Positions 1 to 4,100 of a DNA stretch of 64,000 nucleotides are shown one piece after another. The stretch covers positions 1 through 64,000 of the IMG/VR virus record IMGVR_UViG_3300017917_002068; one strand, written 5' to 3'. Within the stretch, counting starts at the first letter, position 1, and each line of letters begins with the position of its first letter. The notes below the pieces were generated by a model. The model did no database searches. It worked only from the letters and a program-made list of their open reading frames with translations, and was not told where the DNA came from. A program made the position numbers and the translations under genes. The stretch comes from a virus.

Positions 1-864
1 CTGTAGGCGGTTCGCCGCTTACGAAGAATAACTGTGGTGACACAGCCAACGGATGTATGCCTACATAAGTCCGCCAGCAATGGTTCATTTAAGCAAGCCG
101 GCTCACTAGGGCGACCTAGCGATCACTGATAAGACCGGTGGTTGTAACAGCAAAGCTGATGTATGGGAAAGAACGCAGTTCGACGTGCCGCAAGGAACAC
201 GGGACTGTGAAAAGTAACAGGTGGTGCTGACTTCCATACGAAACCAATCAGTTAGTTGGTATGAGAAAGGGTAGTGTTTGGTTCCGAGGGGTCGCTCCTA
301 AGGGGTCAAGCGCAATGTTAGTGGTTAGTGGTTCTGTTGTGAAACAGAGACATTGATCGCGAAACATCACTGAGTAGCTCGCGAGGCAAAAGGTACGTGG
401 TGTGTTGTATTCTGTATCTAACAAGATATAGAGCAACTGAGGCAGCACATCGCAGTAGGTTGATATAGGCTAATGGTAGGCCAATTCCCTGTTAAGGAAT
501 AGACTGTTGGTTCGACTCCAACTATCTTACAAAAATGCAAAGACTGCCTCGGTCATGTGTGAAAAGCATCTAACACTCAAGGCACAAGCTAATTGAGTTT
601 AGTGAAGCTCGCAAGGTAACACTAATTTGTGAATGGGGGTTCGTAACTGTTTAGCGACAGTGAATAGCTCGCAAGGCTAACGGAATGGATTTCACAGAGT
701 AGCACATGATGACAAGACTACTGCCTGTCTTTAAAAACGGCGATGCTGGTAACAGACTAGGATACCGCAAGGGTCTTAGTGGATGTCTAGAGAAGCTATA
801 CTCGCAAGGTGTAGTATAATGCTAGAGGTGTTACTGGCTTAGGGTGTAATCTCAACCTTAGGCA
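1..864 (+). ncRNA. Large highly structured ncRNA, GOLLD-like (5' end probably upstream of the window)
   Basis: About 860 nt with no credible ORF. Many GNRA-capped hairpins (recurrent CGCAAGG), long-range helices such as GAGGCAG 439-445/CTGCCTC 544-550, and a 3' hairpin. It abuts a phage tRNA array and contains a tRNA-like insert; both are reported features of GOLLD RNA. Confidence 0.7.
459..530 (+). ncRNA. tRNA-Asn(GTT)-like module embedded in the large ncRNA
   Basis: D arm GGCT/GGCC, anticodon arm ATTCC-CTGTTAA-GGAAT, T arm GTTGG-TTCGACT-CCAAC. Only 4 acceptor pairs (GATA/TATC) and no CCA. Confidence 0.75.
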
Positions 865-953
865 CTATTATAAAACACATTGTAGCGGGTTCGTAAGTAT
901 GAGTCGCATTCCAAAGAGTGCCCTTGAACTGAATATAGTGTGTTTCATAATAG
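865..953 (+). ncRNA. Small structured element closed by a 20-bp imperfect stem
   Basis: CTATTATAAAACACATTGTA pairs with TATAGTGTGTTTCATAATAG; inner hairpin GCATTC-CAAA-GAGTGC. Confidence 0.55.
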
Positions 954-961
954 AAAATTTG

Positions 962-1036
962 GCATCGATAGCTCAGCGGTAGAGCAACGCCCTTACAAGG
1001 CGAAGGTCCTAGGTTCGATCCCTTGTCGATGCACCA
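962..1036 (+). tRNA. tRNA-Val(TAC)
   Basis: Cloverleaf; acceptor GCATCGA/TCGATGC; anticodon loop CTTACAA; encoded CCA. Confidence 0.93.
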
Positions 1037-1042
1037 CACAGC

Positions 1043-1134
1043 ACCCCTGTAGTTTAATGGTAAAACAGCGGATTTATATCCCGTGTGCAACAGATAATTG
1101 GCCAATGTGGGTTCGACTCCCGCCGGGGGTACCA
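1043..1134 (+). tRNA. tRNA with TAT (Ile) anticodon and a 22-nt variable region
   Basis: Acceptor ACCCCTG/CGGGGGT; loop TTTATAT; variable region 1085-1106; T arm GTGGG-TTCGACT-CCCGC; ACCA end. Confidence 0.8.
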
Positions 1135-1141
1135 ATTAAAT

Positions 1142-1231
1142 GGAAGGTTGGCAGAGTCCGGTTTATTGCACCTGTCTTGAAAACAGACGATCCGAAAGGG
1201 TCCGTGAGTTCGAATCTCACACCTTCCACCA
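1142..1231 (+). tRNA. tRNA-Ser(TGA)
   Basis: Class II cloverleaf; loop CTTGAAA; long variable arm; CCA. Confidence 0.93.
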
Positions 1232-1237
1232 AATTAC

Positions 1238-1330
1238 GGAGAGTTGGCTGAGCGGCTGAAGGCAGCGGTTTGCTAAACCGTCGATCGTTTTATAAGCGGT
1301 CCGAGGGTTCGAATCCCTCACTCTCCACCA
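1238..1330 (+). tRNA. tRNA-Ser(GCT)
   Basis: Class II cloverleaf; loop TTGCTAA; CCA. Confidence 0.93.
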
Positions 1331-1361
1331 AGTACTAGAACTATATACAATACTATAAAGG

Positions 1362-1547
1362 ATGAATATGCTTAGACCTACAGCAAATTATAAAATGAGC
1401 AAGCCAACAAAAACTGGTTTAGCTCTACACAAGTTTAAAGATGCTCACTCTCGTGGGGCATGGAAACGTGCTATGATTCAAGCAGAGCTTAGTGCTGCAA
1501 TACAACCTAAACGTGAAAAATCTCGCAGAGAACCTGCAGGAGAGTAA
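1362..1547 (+). CDS. Small basic hypothetical protein (start may be the internal ATG at 1396)
   Basis: ORF track; fills the gap between tRNA genes; abuts the next ORF. Confidence 0.55.
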   Translation: MNMLRPTANYKMSKPTKTGLALHKFKDAHSRGAWKRAMIQAELSAAIQPKREKSRREPAGE

Positions 1548-1548
1548 T

Positions 1549-1734
1549 ATGGGAGACGGTGGCAAGGGTTCTAGACCGAGACCATTTAGTGTCAGCCAAG
1601 AAGAATTTGATAATAGATGGAATGTTATTTTTAATAAGAAGAAAAAAACAGACACAGAAAAGTTCGACGATTCTGTAATGAAGAATGAATATTATGATCA
1701 GGATATCGATCCCGAAAACCCTGATAAAGATTAA
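1549..1734 (+). CDS. Hypothetical protein (MGDGGKGSRPRP...)
   Basis: ATG at 1549 preceded by AGGAG; in frame with the 1492..1734 ORF. Confidence 0.65.
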   Translation: MGDGGKGSRPRPFSVSQEEFDNRWNVIFNKKKKTDTEKFDDSVMKNEYYDQDIDPENPDKD

Positions 1735-1735
1735 T

Positions 1736-1811
1736 GGGGGTATAGCTCAGATGGGAGAGCAGTAGCTTTGCAAGCTAAAGGTCGTCAGTTCGATCCTGAC
1801 TATCTCCACCA
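1736..1811 (+). tRNA. tRNA-Ala(TGC)
   Basis: G3:U70 pair; loop TTTGCAA; CCA. Confidence 0.93.
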
Positions 1812-1829
1812 AATATATAGAGGAAAAAT

Positions 1830-1997
1830 ATGTCAAAAACAAGTATGCTAACTAAAACAGGTAAGACTAGACTAGGTCCTCTGAGCCTAGCACAGTTAAA
1901 AGATCTTCTAGAAAAAACATCTAGAGCCAAAGATAAAGGCAAGATCATGAATCGCATCCGCGAACTAGAATCTCGAGTAAGTAAAACAGCTATTTGA
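1830..1997 (+). CDS. 55-aa hypothetical protein (MSKTSMLTKTGKTRLGPL...), not in the ORF track
   Basis: GAGG RBS; fills the gap between tRNA-Ala and tRNA-Thr exactly. Confidence 0.6.
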   Translation: MSKTSMLTKTGKTRLGPLSLAQLKDLLEKTSRAKDKGKIMNRIRELESRVSKTAI

Positions 1998-2006
1998 AAA
2001 TTTTAA

Positions 2007-2080
2007 GCCGCTTTAGTTAAATGGTATAACAGTTGCCTTGTAAGCATCAATCGTTGGTTCGATTCCATCAAGCGGCACCA
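2007..2080 (+). tRNA. tRNA-Thr(TGT)
   Basis: Acceptor GCCGCTT/AAGCGGC; loop CTTGTAA; CCA. Confidence 0.9.
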
Positions 2081-2087
2081 GATCAAT

Positions 2088-2162
2088 TCCAGTGTAGCAC
2101 AGCGGTAGTGCAGGTGACTGTTAATCACTTGGTCGTTGGTTCGATCCCAGCCACTGGAGCCA
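2088..2162 (+). tRNA. tRNA-Asn(GTT)
   Basis: Acceptor TCCAGTG/CACTGGA; loop CTGTTAA; GCCA end. Confidence 0.93.
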
Positions 2163-2187
2163 ATTTTGCTAGTTTCTTAAAACTAGC

Positions 2188-2431
2188 CGGAGAAGTAAAG
2201 GGTAGATGAGGATAGACACCGTGTGGCTTCATGCCGCATGACTTAATTCTGGCAAACAGTCTTGAAAACTGTTCGTACTTGTATGACCCAGTCTAAACTA
2301 TTCGACCTTGTGATTTGACAACTGGAAATACACAAGTCTCTGTGCCTTGTGCCTTGTGACTTGTTTAGAGAAACTTTACAGTATCTCGATTTGCATTTTG
2401 TCCGGTCTATTACTTGACCTTTTACTATCCG
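2188..2431 (+). ncRNA. Unassigned structured RNA of about 245 nt
   Basis: Terminal helix 2188-2203/2417-2431; ATAGAC/GTCTAT; hairpins CGTGTGGC-TTCAT-GCCGCATG and AACAGT-CTTGAAA-ACTGTT; no ORF. Confidence 0.55.
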
Positions 2432-2507
2432 TCATTATTTTGGTAAGATAGACGTTGTGTCTGTCTTGTTTTATTGTTATAATTAATCATTGAAAAAAGA
2501 GATACAA

Positions 2508-3080
2508 ATGAATATCACACTTCGCAAAGCAAACGCACTTCAAAACAGCATCAACGATACTATTAAAAGTATCAAGTTTGATACTGTGGTTAAAGTAAAT
2601 GAATTCCAAGATCCAGAAGCAGTTATCAAGACTGCTGAAGTTGAGTTCGCTCGCAACATGCAAAGACGCGACAGTCTTTATGCAGTTCTTTACGAAATTC
2701 GTAAATTAGTCGGCAGAGGCAATGATGCCTCTGGTATTAGCCAAAGACTAGCGGATGTTGCGCATCTAGAAAAACAAATCCAGTTTTTTGGCGACCTTGC
2801 CTCTAAGGAAGTTCGAGAGGATGGAAAAGTCATCGCTGGCAAATTGGATAAGATCCGTAATGAAAAAGGTGAGAGTCGTAGAACTATCTACGGTTACAAT
2901 GACGAAGTATCTACTTCTATCCTAGACAAAGAGGAAGTAGAAGGCTTTAAAAAATTAACAGTAGCCTCTAAGAAAAACAAACAGAAACTCCAAGATGAAA
3001 TTCTTGAGTTGAATGTTAGAACTGAAATCGAACTCAGCGAAAAAGCTGTAGCGATTTTAACATCTGAAGGCTTACTGTAA
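2508..3080 (+). CDS. Hypothetical helical/coiled-coil protein inside the tRNA island
   Basis: 190-aa ORF from ATG 2508; TGnTATAAT just upstream. Confidence 0.8.
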   Translation: MNITLRKANALQNSINDTIKSIKFDTVVKVNEFQDPEAVIKTAEVEFARNMQRRDSLYAVLYEIRKLVGRGNDASGISQRLADVAHLEKQIQFFGDLASKEVREDGKVIAGKLDKIRNEKGESRRTIYGYNDEVSTSILDKEEVEGFKKLTVASKKNKQKLQDEILELNVRTEIELSEKAVAILTSEGLL

Positions 3081-3082
3081 CA

Positions 3083-3278
3083 GACCCCGGTTACACTTTT
3101 CCGGAAGAAAGTGCGCCATTACCAAGCGATAGAAGGTACGGTGCGTAGGATCTACCGCAAGGCCCTCTTTAGGGGCGACTTGAGAAATCTTAGGTACGAA
3201 CTGTAACGGCACCAAAAGCAAAATACAGCGGACAGGGTAACAACTCAGTCTAGGGCGGGACGGGAACCGTGGCTAGAC
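3083..3278 (+). ncRNA. Structured RNA of about 195 nt with a 5' pseudoknot (manA-motif-like candidate)
   Basis: CCGG stem whose loop CACTTT pairs with downstream AAAGTG; GCCCTC-TTTA-GGGGC; 3' GTCTAG...CTAGAC hairpin. Size and tRNA-adjacent phage context fit the manA motif; the family name is unverified. Confidence 0.5.
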
Positions 3279-3366
3279 ACTTTATCGAAGTGCATTACAA
3301 AACATCGGCCAGTTTAAGGTGGACCTGGGTGCTAGCAAGAAAACCTTTAGTGTGCTTCAATAAAGT
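3279..3366 (+). ncRNA. Small structured element closed by a 19-bp imperfect stem (second copy of the 865-953 architecture)
   Basis: ACTTTATCGAAGTGCATTA pairs with TAGTGTGCTTCAATAAAGT. Confidence 0.55.
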
Positions 3367-3375
3367 AAGAACAAT

Positions 3376-3449
3376 CGCGGAATAGAGAAAAGGTATCTCG
3401 AGAGTCTCATAAGCTCTAGTTCTTGGTTCGATTCCAGGTTCCGCAACCA
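3376..3449 (+). tRNA. tRNA-Met(CAT), initiator-like
   Basis: C1xA72 mismatch; A11:U24; loop CTCATAA; CCA. Lacks the three G:C anticodon-stem pairs. Confidence 0.85.
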
Positions 3450-3454
3450 AACAT

Positions 3455-3530
3455 GCGGGAGTAGCTCAGTTGGTAGAGCACTTGCCTTCCAAGCAAGATG
3501 TCGCGAGTTCGAGACTCGTCTCCCGCTCCA
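3455..3530 (+). tRNA. tRNA-Gly(TCC)
   Basis: Cloverleaf; loop CTTCCAA; TCCA end. Confidence 0.95.
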
Positions 3531-3535
3531 AATAT

Positions 3536-3614
3536 CCGGGTGTAGCTTAGTCTGGCTTAAAGCGCCTGCTTTGGGAGCAGGAGATCGTGAGTTCGAATCC
3601 CACTTCCCGGACCA
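3536..3614 (+). tRNA. tRNA-Pro(TGG)
   Basis: Loop TTTGGGA; CCGGG/CCCGG acceptor; CCA. Confidence 0.9.
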
Positions 3615-3623
3615 AAAAAATTT

Positions 3624-3698
3624 ACCCCCGTCGTTCAATGGAGAGGACAGGAGTCTTCTAAACTCTAAATGGAGGTTCGATTCCTTCCGGGGGTGCCA
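3624..3698 (+). tRNA. tRNA-Arg(TCT)
   Basis: Loop CTTCTAA; ACCCCCG/CGGGGGT acceptor; CCA. Confidence 0.92.
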
Positions 3699-3705
3699 GA
3701 ATTAA

Positions 3706-3780
3706 CTCGCTATAGTTCAATGGACAGAACGAGTTCCTCCTAAGAACTAGATCCAGGTTCGATTCCTGGTGGCGAGGCCA
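3706..3780 (+). tRNA. tRNA-Arg(CCT)
   Basis: Loop CTCCTAA; CTCGCTA/TGGCGAG acceptor; CCA. Confidence 0.92.
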
Positions 3781-3783
3781 AGT

Positions 3784-4023
3784 TATTGATGGTGATGAAA
3801 GATCCGATCAACGACCGAAAGGCGATACCGAGCGGGTGGAACTGCAGAGTTGGTGCATCGTAGATACATCGTTGGCTGCAATATGATCCAAGGCTTTTTA
3901 CAGGGTGACTGGATTGCGTGGTAACGGATTCCATGTTGGGCTGGACCATAGAAGCAGGCGCTGTAATGCCTGGGCGGCCAGGAGCTTCGAGCTTAAACCA
4001 AAACTTCATTATTACTGTCAATA
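3784..4023 (+). ncRNA. Unassigned structured RNA of about 240 nt between two tRNAs
   Basis: About 15-bp terminal helix 3784-3798/4009-4023; internal CAACGA/TCGTTG, CC-GAAA-GG, GAAGC/GCTTC, CCTGG-GCGG-CCAGG; GC-rich and non-coding. Confidence 0.6.
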
Positions 4024-4026
4024 CTA

Positions 4027-4100
4027 GCCCAGGTAGCCGAATTGGTATAGGCACTACGTTGAGGTCGTAGGTTTTGTGAGTTCGAATCTCACCCTGGGTA
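4027..4100 (+). tRNA. tRNA-Leu(GAG) lacking the long variable arm; CCA not encoded
   Basis: Acceptor GCCCAGG/CCTGGGT; CTACG-TTGAGGT-CGTAG; 5-nt variable loop GTTTT; T arm GTGAG-TTCGAAT-CTCAC. Confidence 0.85.

Follow-up and report, generated by a model that had tools for sequence, protein, structure and literature searches.

Organization of the locus

The window analysed here is a 64,000-nt stretch of DNA that starts at base 1 of a 128-kb viral record (IMG/VR IMGVR_UViG_3300017917_002068), and all features described below lie on its plus strand. It opens with a GOLLD RNA. Positions 1–396 correspond to the probable variable 5′ domain, assigned from its location directly upstream of the Rfam GOLLD match and cut by the contig start. 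The conserved 3′ domain follows at 397–863, with the RF02032 match spanning 397–858 (197.6 bits, gathering score 150; E = 3.2e-54) and a tRNA-Asn embedded at 460–530 according to ARAGORN. This domain closes with P27, the last GOLLD hairpin (837–863, loop GUAAUCUCA), whose pairing was read from the sequence and covaries among relatives. A further hairpin, cassette 1 (865–953), begins 1 nt past the close of P27 at 863 and, with the Rfam model already ending at 858, lies outside the modelled GOLLD.

A second hairpin, cassette 2 (3279–3366), directly abuts another structured RNA of about 200 nt (~3081–3278), an unnamed conserved element that we call ncRNA2. Its conserved 3′ core GGACAGGGUAACAACUC occupies 3230–3246 and its terminal hairpin 3248–3278. 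At least 119 viral stretches contain the core pattern, and the element is conserved after a 190-aa gene in nine of 13 related loci, while a comparison with Rfam gave no match at E ≤ 5. As the earlier note on this DNA had proposed, each cassette lies directly 5′ of a tRNA gene: tRNA-Val(UAC) (962–1036; ARAGORN, Rfam tRNA 66.8 bits) starts after an 8-nt gap and tRNA-Met(CAU) (3376–3449; ARAGORN, Rfam tRNA 55.1 bits) after a 9-nt gap. Its companion claim, that each cassette sits 3′ of a large non-coding RNA, holds in the window for GOLLD and ncRNA2 but does not define the element, which is most often found between two tRNAs. Although 1228 cultured phage records were matched, all matches ran through tRNAs and none extended over 80% or more of the query, which left no cultured relative from which to annotate the locus.

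Structure of the two hairpins

Both hairpins exist as first described, their closing stems being reproduced by RNAfold exactly as read from the sequence. In cassette 1 the 5′ arm (865–884) and the 3′ arm (934–953) enclose an interior at 885–933. An outer helix of 7 bp (C865–G953 to T871–A947) is followed by an A872·C946 mismatch, corresponding to pair 8 of the family-wide helix, and by an inner helix of 12 pairs (A873–T945 to A884–T934) that includes T880·G938 and G882·T936, giving 19 pairs and one mismatch in all. In cassette 2 the arms (3279–3297 and 3348–3366) enclose an interior at 3298–3347; here the 7-bp outer helix (A3279–T3366 to T3285–A3360) is followed by a C3286·A3359 mismatch and 11 pairs up to A3297–T3348, three of them G·U, giving 18 pairs and one mismatch. 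Predicted folding energies are −29.4 kcal/mol for cassette 1 (z = −5.97, with none of 200 shuffles equal or better) and −24.5 kcal/mol for cassette 2 (z = −2.40, two of 200 shuffles), and both minus strands are less stable (−20.7 and −19.8, respectively).

The proposal that the two stems share an A/C mismatch at one position was borne out in that it lies 7 bp from the base in both; the polarity, however, is opposite, with A on the 5′ arm of cassette 1 and C on that of cassette 2, and its distance from the apex differs by one pair between the two. The literal stem signature offered at the outset fits both cassettes with one base of register slack, but without slack cassette 1 is one base off. 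As a search tool the signature was rejected as insufficiently specific: allowing at most one mismatch, its 3′ part matched cassette 2 alone (one match against 0.47 expected), and its 5′ part matched cassette 2 and ten other sites against 7.8 expected, missing cassette 1. An intrinsic terminator, in the sense of a GC-rich hairpin plus a U tract, was not found at these stems, the GC content of which is 0.24–0.27; the sequences that follow them are AAAAUUUG in cassette 1 and AAGAACAAU in cassette 2, with the tRNAs 8–9 nt downstream. Neither ARAGORN nor the Rfam tRNA and tmRNA models made a call at 865–953 or 3279–3366, and no Rfam family was matched by the cassettes.

A hairpin family defined by one conserved stem

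The two hairpins are genuine copies of one large family of tRNA-sized RNA hairpins, found in tRNA gene clusters of phages that are uncultured and mostly large. A search for the stem across the full record and its relatives recovered only the two core-motif cassettes in the record itself and, from related viral contigs totalling about 2 Mb, 281 distinct core-type cassettes, only four of which have an interior shorter than 20 nt. The stem core common to the family is AAAYAYAUU / ARURURUUU. Block shuffling of the ~2 Mb of retrieved loci left 43 long stems with at least 17 of 18 pairs, where the real sequence has 817; helix length clusters at 18–21 bp, and the stems are AU-rich compared with the interiors (GC 0.24–0.27 versus 0.47).

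Covariation was assessed on 70 cassettes with distinct 5′ arms over a 17-bp helix. In this set 96.3% of cells are paired, a figure that holds partly by construction since the cassettes were chosen by pairing. Changes on both sides occur at 12 of the 17 pairs, and the covariation score of 0.468 compares with 0.187 in shuffles (none of 500 reaching the observed value) and with 0.05–0.16 when partners are slid. Departures from pairing are concentrated at pair 8, at the centre of the helix, which is unpaired in 31 of 70 cassettes (A·C in 21, U·U in five, C·A in two and three other combinations once each); the terminal pair 1 is unpaired in ten, and the remaining 15 positions in none or one each. 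Pair 16 is U·G in 52 of 70, A9, A10 and A15 are invariant, and U17 is present in 69.

The strand on which the structure forms could be read from the wobble pairs. On the strand of the neighbouring tRNA, 258 G·U stand against 122 A·C; counted per hairpin, G·U exceeds A·C in 119 cases, A·C exceeds G·U in 38 and the two are equal in 100, which establishes an RNA structure on the tRNA sense strand. The central claim of the earlier note, a repeated closing-stem handle with variable inner RNAs, is thus strongly supported by hundreds of distinct cassettes, stem covariation, a mismatch tied to one position and the exchange of interiors within identical flanks.

The family appears to be undescribed so far. 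Within the parts of the literature covered, which included PMC12286853, PMC5737381 and 10.64898/2026.07.01.735769, we found no description of such hairpins.

Genomic context

Cassettes are confined to tRNA islands and lie on the tRNA strand, and their position within the islands follows recurrent rules. In 193 of 205 cases the following tRNA lies −4 to +10 nt from the end of the stem, and the end of an upstream tRNA overlaps the stem by 2–6 nt in 117 of 131. The tRNA–cassette–tRNA arrangement was found in 70 distinct cases. GOLLD 3′ ends of the P27 type seen in the window carry the handle on 15 of 15 occasions, and with the upstream sequence inspected the hairpin was present in 40 of 43 distinct contexts retrieved with the 5′ arm. 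Downstream of ncRNA2, 60 of 120 distinct 3′ ends are followed by the stem, mostly flush, compared with five of 120 control positions. Among distinct tRNA–tRNA spacers of 50–300 nt in the sampled loci, 89 of 592 are closed flush by such a stem; the notion that every long spacer is stem-closed was rejected on this count, the handle being common but no rule.

Outside the islands the signal fades. In a complete 355-kb relative, total hairpin matches are at noise level (11 versus eight after shuffling), and its tRNA island accounts for the only two that are cassette-like or tRNA-adjacent. Elsewhere between the genes of the window's 128-kb record, no core-motif cassette occurs. In prokaryote genomes a gapped 18-base pattern returned at least 120 stretches, nearly all of them chance matches, with outer pairing distributed as in random sequence (mode 3/8); among the matches listed, L234 and L313 alone look like true cassettes.

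Variable interiors

Interiors are mostly 30–90 nt long and fall into many unrelated families, and those of the two window cassettes are, as had been noted, unrelated to each other. Phages with identical flanks carry unrelated interiors. This is exemplified by loci L074 and L080, in which the upstream 200 nt are 100% and the downstream 90 nt 93% identical but the interiors are only 46% identical, against 49% for shuffled interiors. Modular exchange is therefore a property of the family, whose principle is one conserved long stem within which inner sequences are freely exchanged. Some interior families are nevertheless conserved across contexts, and a cassette family at the equivalent position in relatives bears a T-arm-like element.

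The handle of cassette 1 recurs in 39 distinct cassettes, and its interior belongs to a family of five members in three contexts. Cassette 2 is a row of alignment A1; its interior has no other copy in IMG/VR, and a putative pseudoknot of 4 bp and 5 bp within it would be topologically possible. Antisense matches of both window interiors in the 128-kb record reach at most 10–11 nt, against 11–13 nt in shuffles. As a class the interiors fold no better than shuffles (median z of −0.43 and +0.20), and many may accordingly be neutral filler and not functional RNAs; the idea that all interiors are structured RNAs is unsupported, z being about 0.

Interpretation and alternative explanations

The best overall explanation, to which we assign a probability of roughly 0.55, is that the stem is an RNA handle packaging variable small RNAs as end-paired units within a polycistronic tRNA transcript. 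Each unit consists of an AU-rich conserved helix of 17–20 bp and a variable interior, mostly of 30–90 nt, making the whole approximately tRNA-sized; the helix carries the core 5′-AAAYAYAUU...ARURURUUU-3′, has U·G as its penultimate inner pair and is weak or mismatched at pair 8. Transcribed, on this reading, within the tRNA-island transcript, the handle starts flush with GOLLD P27, with the ncRNA2 terminal hairpin or with a tRNA CCA end drawn into the helix, and ends a few bases before the next tRNA. The tRNA-processing enzymes, and perhaps host RNase III, would free or trim the units. An RNase P cut at the downstream tRNA would set the 3′ side (for cassette 1, at the 5′ end of tRNA-Val). In 117 of 131 cases the duplex takes up the CCA of the upstream tRNA, whose maturation logically requires either that the duplex be cut or that cleavage fall precisely behind the CCA; we infer that the end of this tRNA is freed by a duplex-cutting endonuclease, for which host RNase III acting close to the weak central pair is the likeliest candidate, with precise cleavage after the CCA as the alternative. 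Whether released or retained, the small RNA would then owe its stability to its paired termini, and the conserved arms may supply the homology for recombinational swapping of interiors. Counting against this reading are the lack of an RNase III gene in the six phage records examined, interiors that as a class fold like shuffled sequence, the minority of tRNA–tRNA spacers that a stem closes and the solitary interior of cassette 2.

A narrower proposal makes the stem a host RNase III site, in which a dimer centred on the ~18-bp helix would cut both arms near pair 8, so parting the interior hairpin from the ncRNA or tRNA upstream and from the tRNA downstream and leaving the interiors as by-products or released small RNAs. 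We consider it possible but less than probable. A helix length of about two helical turns, the AU-rich stems, the central mismatch hot spot and the upstream CCA lying within the duplex all favour it, and the stems may be likened to rRNA leader–trailer stems and phage T7 sites. Against it stand the conservation of the inner core (A9, A10, A15, U17 and the U·G at pair 16), which goes beyond the usual requirements of RNase III, the roughly half of ncRNA2 copies that lack such a stem, and the lack of a phage-encoded enzyme: PF14622 found no RNase III gene in the window's own record or in five large relatives, three of them at least 98% complete, so any RNase III acting here would be the host's. 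The RNase III proposal amounts to a sharper version of one step of the handle explanation. The family could also be a plug-in system, in which a universal ~18-bp handle is read by one dedicated factor (host RNase III or a phage protein recognising the core, the U·G and the weak pair) and carries interchangeable payloads swapped by recombination at the handle; we regard this as speculative and rather doubtful. Were it true, phages would load, process and stabilise tRNA-sized payloads such as decoys, anti-defence RNAs or accessories of the GOLLD cage.

Two further readings assign the hairpins to something other than a processing unit. For cassette 1, the 1-nt distance from P27 and the presence of the hairpin on all 15 GOLLD copies of this P27 type, as in 40 of the 43 contexts retrieved with the 5′ arm, would suit an extra 3′-terminal GOLLD helix, 'P28', forming a peripheral nanocage domain with a protruding variable tip, and the GNRA-like loops of the cassette 1 interior (CGUAAG; CGCAAG in relatives) could make tertiary contacts. 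This is unlikely, because handle, core and mismatch all recur away from GOLLD, between plain tRNAs in 70 distinct cases and after ncRNA2, the Rfam model stops at 858, and, in the portion of the published account consulted, GOLLD comprises P1–P27 and an 833-nt RNA builds the 14-mer cage without such a helix (PMC12286853). Least probable of all, and in our view very unlikely, is a selfish origin, with the cassettes as non-autonomous mobile DNA hairpins that home to tRNA islands, either MITE- or REPIN-like or recognised in single-stranded form, and with their arms serving as recombinase or transposase sites. Such elements would account for the multiplicity of copies in which conserved but imperfect inverted arms flank a variable centre, for the recombination of interiors and arms in differing combinations and for presence/absence polymorphism after ncRNA2 (60 with and 60 without among 120), but not for confinement to tRNA islands and absence from other intergenic regions of the 355-kb genome and the 128-kb record, for co-orientation with tRNAs and the sense-strand G·U excess, for boundaries flush with functional RNA ends, CCA included, or for about two convincing copies among the 120 prokaryote matches listed.

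Relation to known RNAs

RNase III stems, such as rRNA leader–trailer helices and phage T7 intercistronic hairpins, join the ends of an enclosed RNA in a polycistronic transcript through a long helix of about two turns, often with an internal mismatch or loop near the cut. The cassettes share the long terminal helix of about two turns, the internal mismatch and the polycistronic setting, and their stems likewise provide near-uninterrupted dsRNA of that length. They differ in that the enclosed RNA is small (30–90 nt) and interchangeable, the core sequence is conserved over hundreds of copies and the tRNA CCA end lies inside the helix. The tRNA cluster of phage T4 encodes species 1 and 2, stable non-tRNA RNAs of roughly tRNA size that are co-transcribed and co-processed with tRNAs; compared by description, the cassettes resemble them as roughly tRNA-sized non-tRNA RNAs in a phage tRNA cluster.

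REP/REPIN elements and MITEs also occur in many copies, as hairpins of ~100 nt with conserved imperfect inverted repeats and a less conserved centre, features that the cassettes reproduce. Unlike these elements, the cassettes are not dispersed through the genome, as seen in the 355-kb relative and in the window's own record, but keep to the tRNA strand and abut RNA processing sites, and whereas REP/REPIN and MITE centres are merely diverged, cassette interiors bear no relation to one another. YrlA (RF02553) likewise pairs a variable or tRNA-like module with a long closing helix interrupted by a mismatch or bulge. A Y RNA/Ro origin was rejected: RF02553 gave no match on the cassettes, its weak matches (27.3 and 19.8 bits; gathering score 69) falling on true tRNAs, and the 128-kb record (37% complete) lacks Ro/TROVE and RtcB genes.

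GOLLD, as described in the part of the cryo-EM study consulted, is built of stems P1–P27 and forms a 14-mer cage (PMC12286853). Cassette 1 is tied to it by being appended 1 nt past its last hairpin, on the same transcript and in the same phage tRNA-island habitat, but lies outside both the Rfam model and P1–P27 and is also found without GOLLD. That one handle is joined both to GOLLD and to ncRNA2, itself widespread and unnamed, suggests a concrete hypothesis for how the GOLLD 3′ end is formed and for which RNAs accompany it.

Phage tRNA islands are usually annotated as tRNAs with unexplained spacers. A sizeable share of those spacers (89 of the 592 sampled) can now be described as ordered, conserved RNA units on one handle, a newly defined RNA family with hundreds of members that is easy to search for. 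The cassettes also provide a natural case of modular RNA payload exchange, and the handle, if portable, could serve as a scaffold for small-RNA expression from tRNA arrays.

Transcripts and a third stem-closed unit

An RNA-library contig of 309 nt (depth 655) runs from a GOLLD 3′ end through a cassette-1-like hairpin into a tRNA-Pro, although in such contigs transcript ends are not visible and DNA may be included. Positions 1–840 of the window are covered at high depth by RNA-library contigs of relatives; the drop in depth past 840 was discarded as a signal, since these contigs come from relatives with differing interiors, which could not align to the interior of the window's own cassette, and cannot show ends.

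The window also holds a third stem-closed unit of 246 nt (3781–4026), which takes up the whole spacer from tRNA-Arg(CCU) to tRNA-Leu(GAG) and is a candidate member of the family. Its stem sequence differs from that of the cassettes and its interior is larger. A stem scan found 16 of 18 pairs at 3784–4023, and in the RNAfold prediction, at an overall z of only −0.69, the closing helix spans the entire spacer.

Two stem-closed cassettes in the tRNA island

The window covers the first 64 kb of an IMG/VR viral record that spans 128,003 nt (37% complete by CheckV estimate), and the tRNA island, at bases 1–4100, carries 14 tRNAs, all on the plus strand. The earlier note had described two cassettes of ~90 nt in this island, closed by a common stem that forms a handle around different interiors; both are borne out, whereas the literal stem consensus needs one base of slack. 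Cassette 1 (C865–G953, plus strand) follows a GOLLD RNA (Rfam RF02032; 397–858, plus strand, scoring 197.6 bits where the gathering threshold is 150, and enclosing a tRNA-Asn) whose last hairpin, P27, closes at 863 on the same strand as read from the sequence. Its stem comprises 7 bp, an A872.C946 mismatch and 12 further pairs, the predicted fold reaches −29.4 kcal/mol (z −5.97) and tRNA-Val lies 8 nt downstream. Cassette 2 (A3279–T3366, plus strand) is flush with the terminal hairpin (3248–3278) of a conserved RNA of ~200 nt that we refer to as ncRNA2; it comprises 7 bp, a C3286.A3359 mismatch and 11 pairs including three G.U, folds at −24.5 kcal/mol (z −2.40) and has tRNA-Met 9 nt downstream. 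The A/C mismatch noted earlier as shared is present in both cassettes, but with opposite polarity. Minus-strand folds of both are weaker than the plus-strand ones, and within the record the core motif of the handle (AAAYAYAUU/ARURURUUU) occurs only in these two cassettes.

A third stem-closed unit fills the whole 246-nt spacer from tRNA-Arg(CCU) to tRNA-Leu(GAG) (3781–4026), with 16/18 pairs, a different stem sequence and an overall fold z of only −0.69. Its segment 3800–3979 is matched by RNA-library contigs of relatives.

The same stem behind GOLLD in related viruses

Through the 190-aa gene at 2508–3080, 13 related viral loci were reached, four of which contain GOLLD. In these four, the gap from GOLLD to the tRNA holds the same stem with the same A.C mismatch and a compensatory A-U to C-G change, despite completely different interiors. 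Scanning IMG/VR with the 5′ arm returned 77 stretches and 78 occurrences including the window. A matching 3′ arm was present in 59 of the 78, the other 19 lying in unrelated, mostly coding-looking sequence. The 59 reduce to 39 distinct cassettes with interiors of 29–99 nt, and a tRNA of one of seven different isotypes begins within 25 nt downstream in 27 of them. Inspection of upstream context in 43 distinct cases identified GOLLD P27 in 40, the ncRNA2 3′ end in two (loci L030 and L083) and another context in one. A stem-independent scan, using the P27 type of the window as the pattern, gave 28 stretches; the stem was present (17/18 pairs) in 15/15 cases with GOLLD-like upstream sequence (window included), where 5′-arm variants were transitions only and pairing was kept. 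The other 14 cases were unrelated sequence and had no stem.

ncRNA2 and the stems that follow it

ncRNA2 (3081–3278 in the window; also loci L002–L010 and L092–L207) has a conserved 3′ core, GGACAGRGUAACNRCUC, and a covarying terminal hairpin. No fewer than 119 viral stretches contain this core; the 5′ part varies by subtype, the AGACCC-type start of the window being found in 24/126 distinct copies among the matches listed. Rfam yields no family for the window copy at E ≤ 5, nor any for ncRNA2 or the cassettes in relatives.

Among the matches listed, 120 distinct ncRNA2 3′ ends had enough downstream sequence for analysis. A stem of at least 16/18 pairs follows 60 of them, mostly flush and including two that are actually tRNA pairs, against 5/120 at random positions in the same loci. 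Within this sample, the stem ends within 30 nt of a tRNA in 41 of the 60 stem-bearing cases, mostly at 0–4 nt, and 27 of the 60 stemless ends reach a tRNA directly (≤15 nt). The stems differ in sequence yet covary, as in ACUUUAUU.../...AAUAAAGU and ACCAUAUU.../...AAUAUGGU.

A hairpin family across tRNA islands

All fetched loci, about 2 Mb, were scanned for stems of at least 17/18 pairs, yielding 817 against 43 after block shuffling. Strand merging left 446 distinct hairpins, and 12 with a tRNA inside were set aside. By flanking context, 70 hairpins lie between two tRNAs, 39 between a tRNA and another sequence, 39 between another sequence and a tRNA, 29 between ncRNA2 and a tRNA, 27 between GOLLD and a tRNA, 12 between GOLLD and another sequence and 11 between ncRNA2 and another sequence; 22 adjoin another cassette, and 185, noise included, have no recognized flank. 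Where a tRNA precedes, the 5′ arm opens with that tRNA's own (A)CCA (for example UACCAUAUAAAAACACAUU ... AGUGUGUUUCUAUAUGGUA), and these cassettes share the inner core and the A.C at pair 8 with cassette 1. Upstream, stem and tRNA end overlap by 2–6 nt in 117/131 cases; downstream, the distance from the stem end to the following tRNA is −4 to +10 nt in 193/205. A purine/pyrimidine-level core motif defines 281 distinct cassettes, whose interiors peak at 40–60 nt and fall below 20 nt in only four. Flush closure by such a stem was found in 89 of 592 distinct tRNA–tRNA spacers of 50–300 nt, against one after shuffling; the handle is not universal among these spacers. Tandem cassettes, with handle hairpins back to back before the next tRNA, were seen at L096, L176, L038/L065/L123 and L080.

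Covariation was assessed on 70 cassettes with distinct 5′ arms. Across the 17 pairs, numbered from the base of the helix, 96.3% of cells are paired, a percentage that is partly by construction because rows were selected by pairing; the covariation and the 19-fold excess over shuffles are not. Both sides change at 12/17 pairs. The alignment scores 0.468 for covariation; shuffled alignments give 0.187 (0/500 reach 0.468) and slid partners 0.05–0.16. Unpaired cells concentrate at pair 8 (31/70: A.C 21, U.U 5, C.A 2, three others once each), with ten at the terminal pair and none or one at each remaining position. Pair 16 is U.G in 52/70 rows; every row has A9, A10 and A15, and 69/70 have U17. The stems, mostly 18–21 bp, are AU-rich (GC 0.24–0.27, versus 0.47 in interiors). 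Counted on the same strand as the adjacent tRNA, G.U pairs number 258 and A.C pairs 122, an excess of G.U that fits selection on the sense transcript.

Modular interiors

Interior identity is unrelated to flank identity, and the interiors are modular. Loci L074 and L080 are 100% identical over the upstream 200 nt and 93% over the downstream 90 nt; between their interiors, of 48 and 35 nt, identity drops to 46%, compared with 49% for shuffled interiors. One 29-nt interior occurs both behind GOLLD and behind ncRNA2. The 95 distinct cassettes following either RNA form 41 clusters, 28 of them singletons, and as a class their interior stability is at shuffle level (median z −0.43 and +0.20). The cassette 2 interior, in which the earlier note had proposed a possible pseudoknot, has no second copy in IMG/VR. 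Antisense matches of the two window interiors in the 128,003-nt record do not exceed chance.

Some interior families are conserved across contexts. That of cassette 1 spans five loci, where it either follows GOLLD, under two different outer stems, or separates two tRNAs; the interior is near-constant, and the outer stem carries compensatory changes. In most relatives, the site corresponding to cassette 2 holds a member of a conserved tRNA-like family (16 distinct) that includes a T-arm-like element. The family members (L002:2619–2755, L009:1228–1364 and 14 others; 130–139 nt) have outer and inner stems of 8 bp each, separated by an internal loop of 3 nt, with the T-arm-like element immediately before the 3′ strand, an acceptor/T-arm mimic; neither ARAGORN nor Rfam calls them.

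A C-AUA-G hairpin (AUA triloop closed by C-G on a stem of at least 4 bp) occurs in 16/155 non-redundant interiors versus 2.2 expected. CATAG itself is found in 28/155 versus 7.7 expected, and the hairpin appears in otherwise unrelated interiors (L024, L026, L038, L057, L066, L094, L101 and others).

Distribution and RNA libraries

The complete 355-kb relative (G002) has only two cassette-like or tRNA-adjacent hairpins, both inside its tRNA island, and its other hairpin hits are at noise level (11 hits in all versus 8 after shuffling). Species-representative prokaryote genomes gave almost only chance matches among the matches listed, and cultured phage records resemble the region through tRNAs only. 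RNA-library contigs of relatives, which record presence in a library rather than RNA ends and may include DNA carry-over, heavily cover GOLLD; one of 309 nt, at depth 655, links the 3′ end of GOLLD to tRNA-Pro across a cassette-1-like hairpin and five further letters.

Proposed processing model and alternatives

Our analysis shows a cassette helix that is conserved on the sense strand, lies flush between RNA processing sites, takes in the upstream CCA and encloses interchangeable interiors. We favour, at a probability of about 0.55, a reading in which tRNA-processing enzymes cut out or trim the handle-bearing unit, ends paired, and RNase P probably acts at its 3′ side. Burial of the upstream tRNA's CCA in the duplex would call for endonucleolytic cleavage within or at the helix. 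The most economical candidate would be host RNase III acting around the weak pair 8, although no phage-encoded RNase III gene was found in the record or in five large relatives, and we hold this specific enzyme only tentatively. Pairing of the termini may shield the product from exonuclease attack, and for interior swapping the conserved arms could offer 17–19 nt of homology.

A structural helix specific to GOLLD would place the stem within that RNA's own architecture, which conflicts with the contexts and distribution of the cassettes and is improbable; a mobile DNA hairpin conflicts with the same data and seems more doubtful still. The nearest likenesses are the stems processed by RNase III in rRNA operons and phage T7, the small stable RNAs of the T4 tRNA cluster, REPIN-type hairpins and Y RNA-like RNAs. 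Tested for membership of GOLLD, YrlA, tRNA/tmRNA, terminators and dispersed REP-like elements, the cassettes qualified for none. A literature search, its reach stopping short of supplementary alignments, returned no description of these hairpins, and they are absent from the accessible parts of PMC12286853 and PMC5737381. We rate the handle as a probable processing or stabilizing terminal helix, unusual in its modular, family-wide use.

Other RNA features of the islands

The tRNA-Ile(UAU) at 1043–1134 measures 92 nt and has its anticodon and T arms separated by a long insert, which is unusual for an Ile tRNA. Between tRNA-Asn and the 190-aa gene, the non-coding segment 2163–2500 may represent a leader or a further ncRNA; in L014, a distant relative, similar sequence lies downstream of the homologous gene, and RNA-library contigs of relatives fall on 2187–2289 and nearby (depths 98–306, up to about 2100 at one joint). 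The tmRNAs of related contigs (L100:13913–14302, L147:6826–7224, G002:50318–50763) score in Rfam as betaproteobacterial or permuted, ARAGORN also calling a permuted tmRNA in the 355-kb relative, and these types may hint at the host group. In that relative, ARAGORN labels G002:318225–318298 tRNA-Pyl, i.e. with an amber-reading anticodon; it is possibly a suppressor, which would hint that this phage recodes a stop codon.
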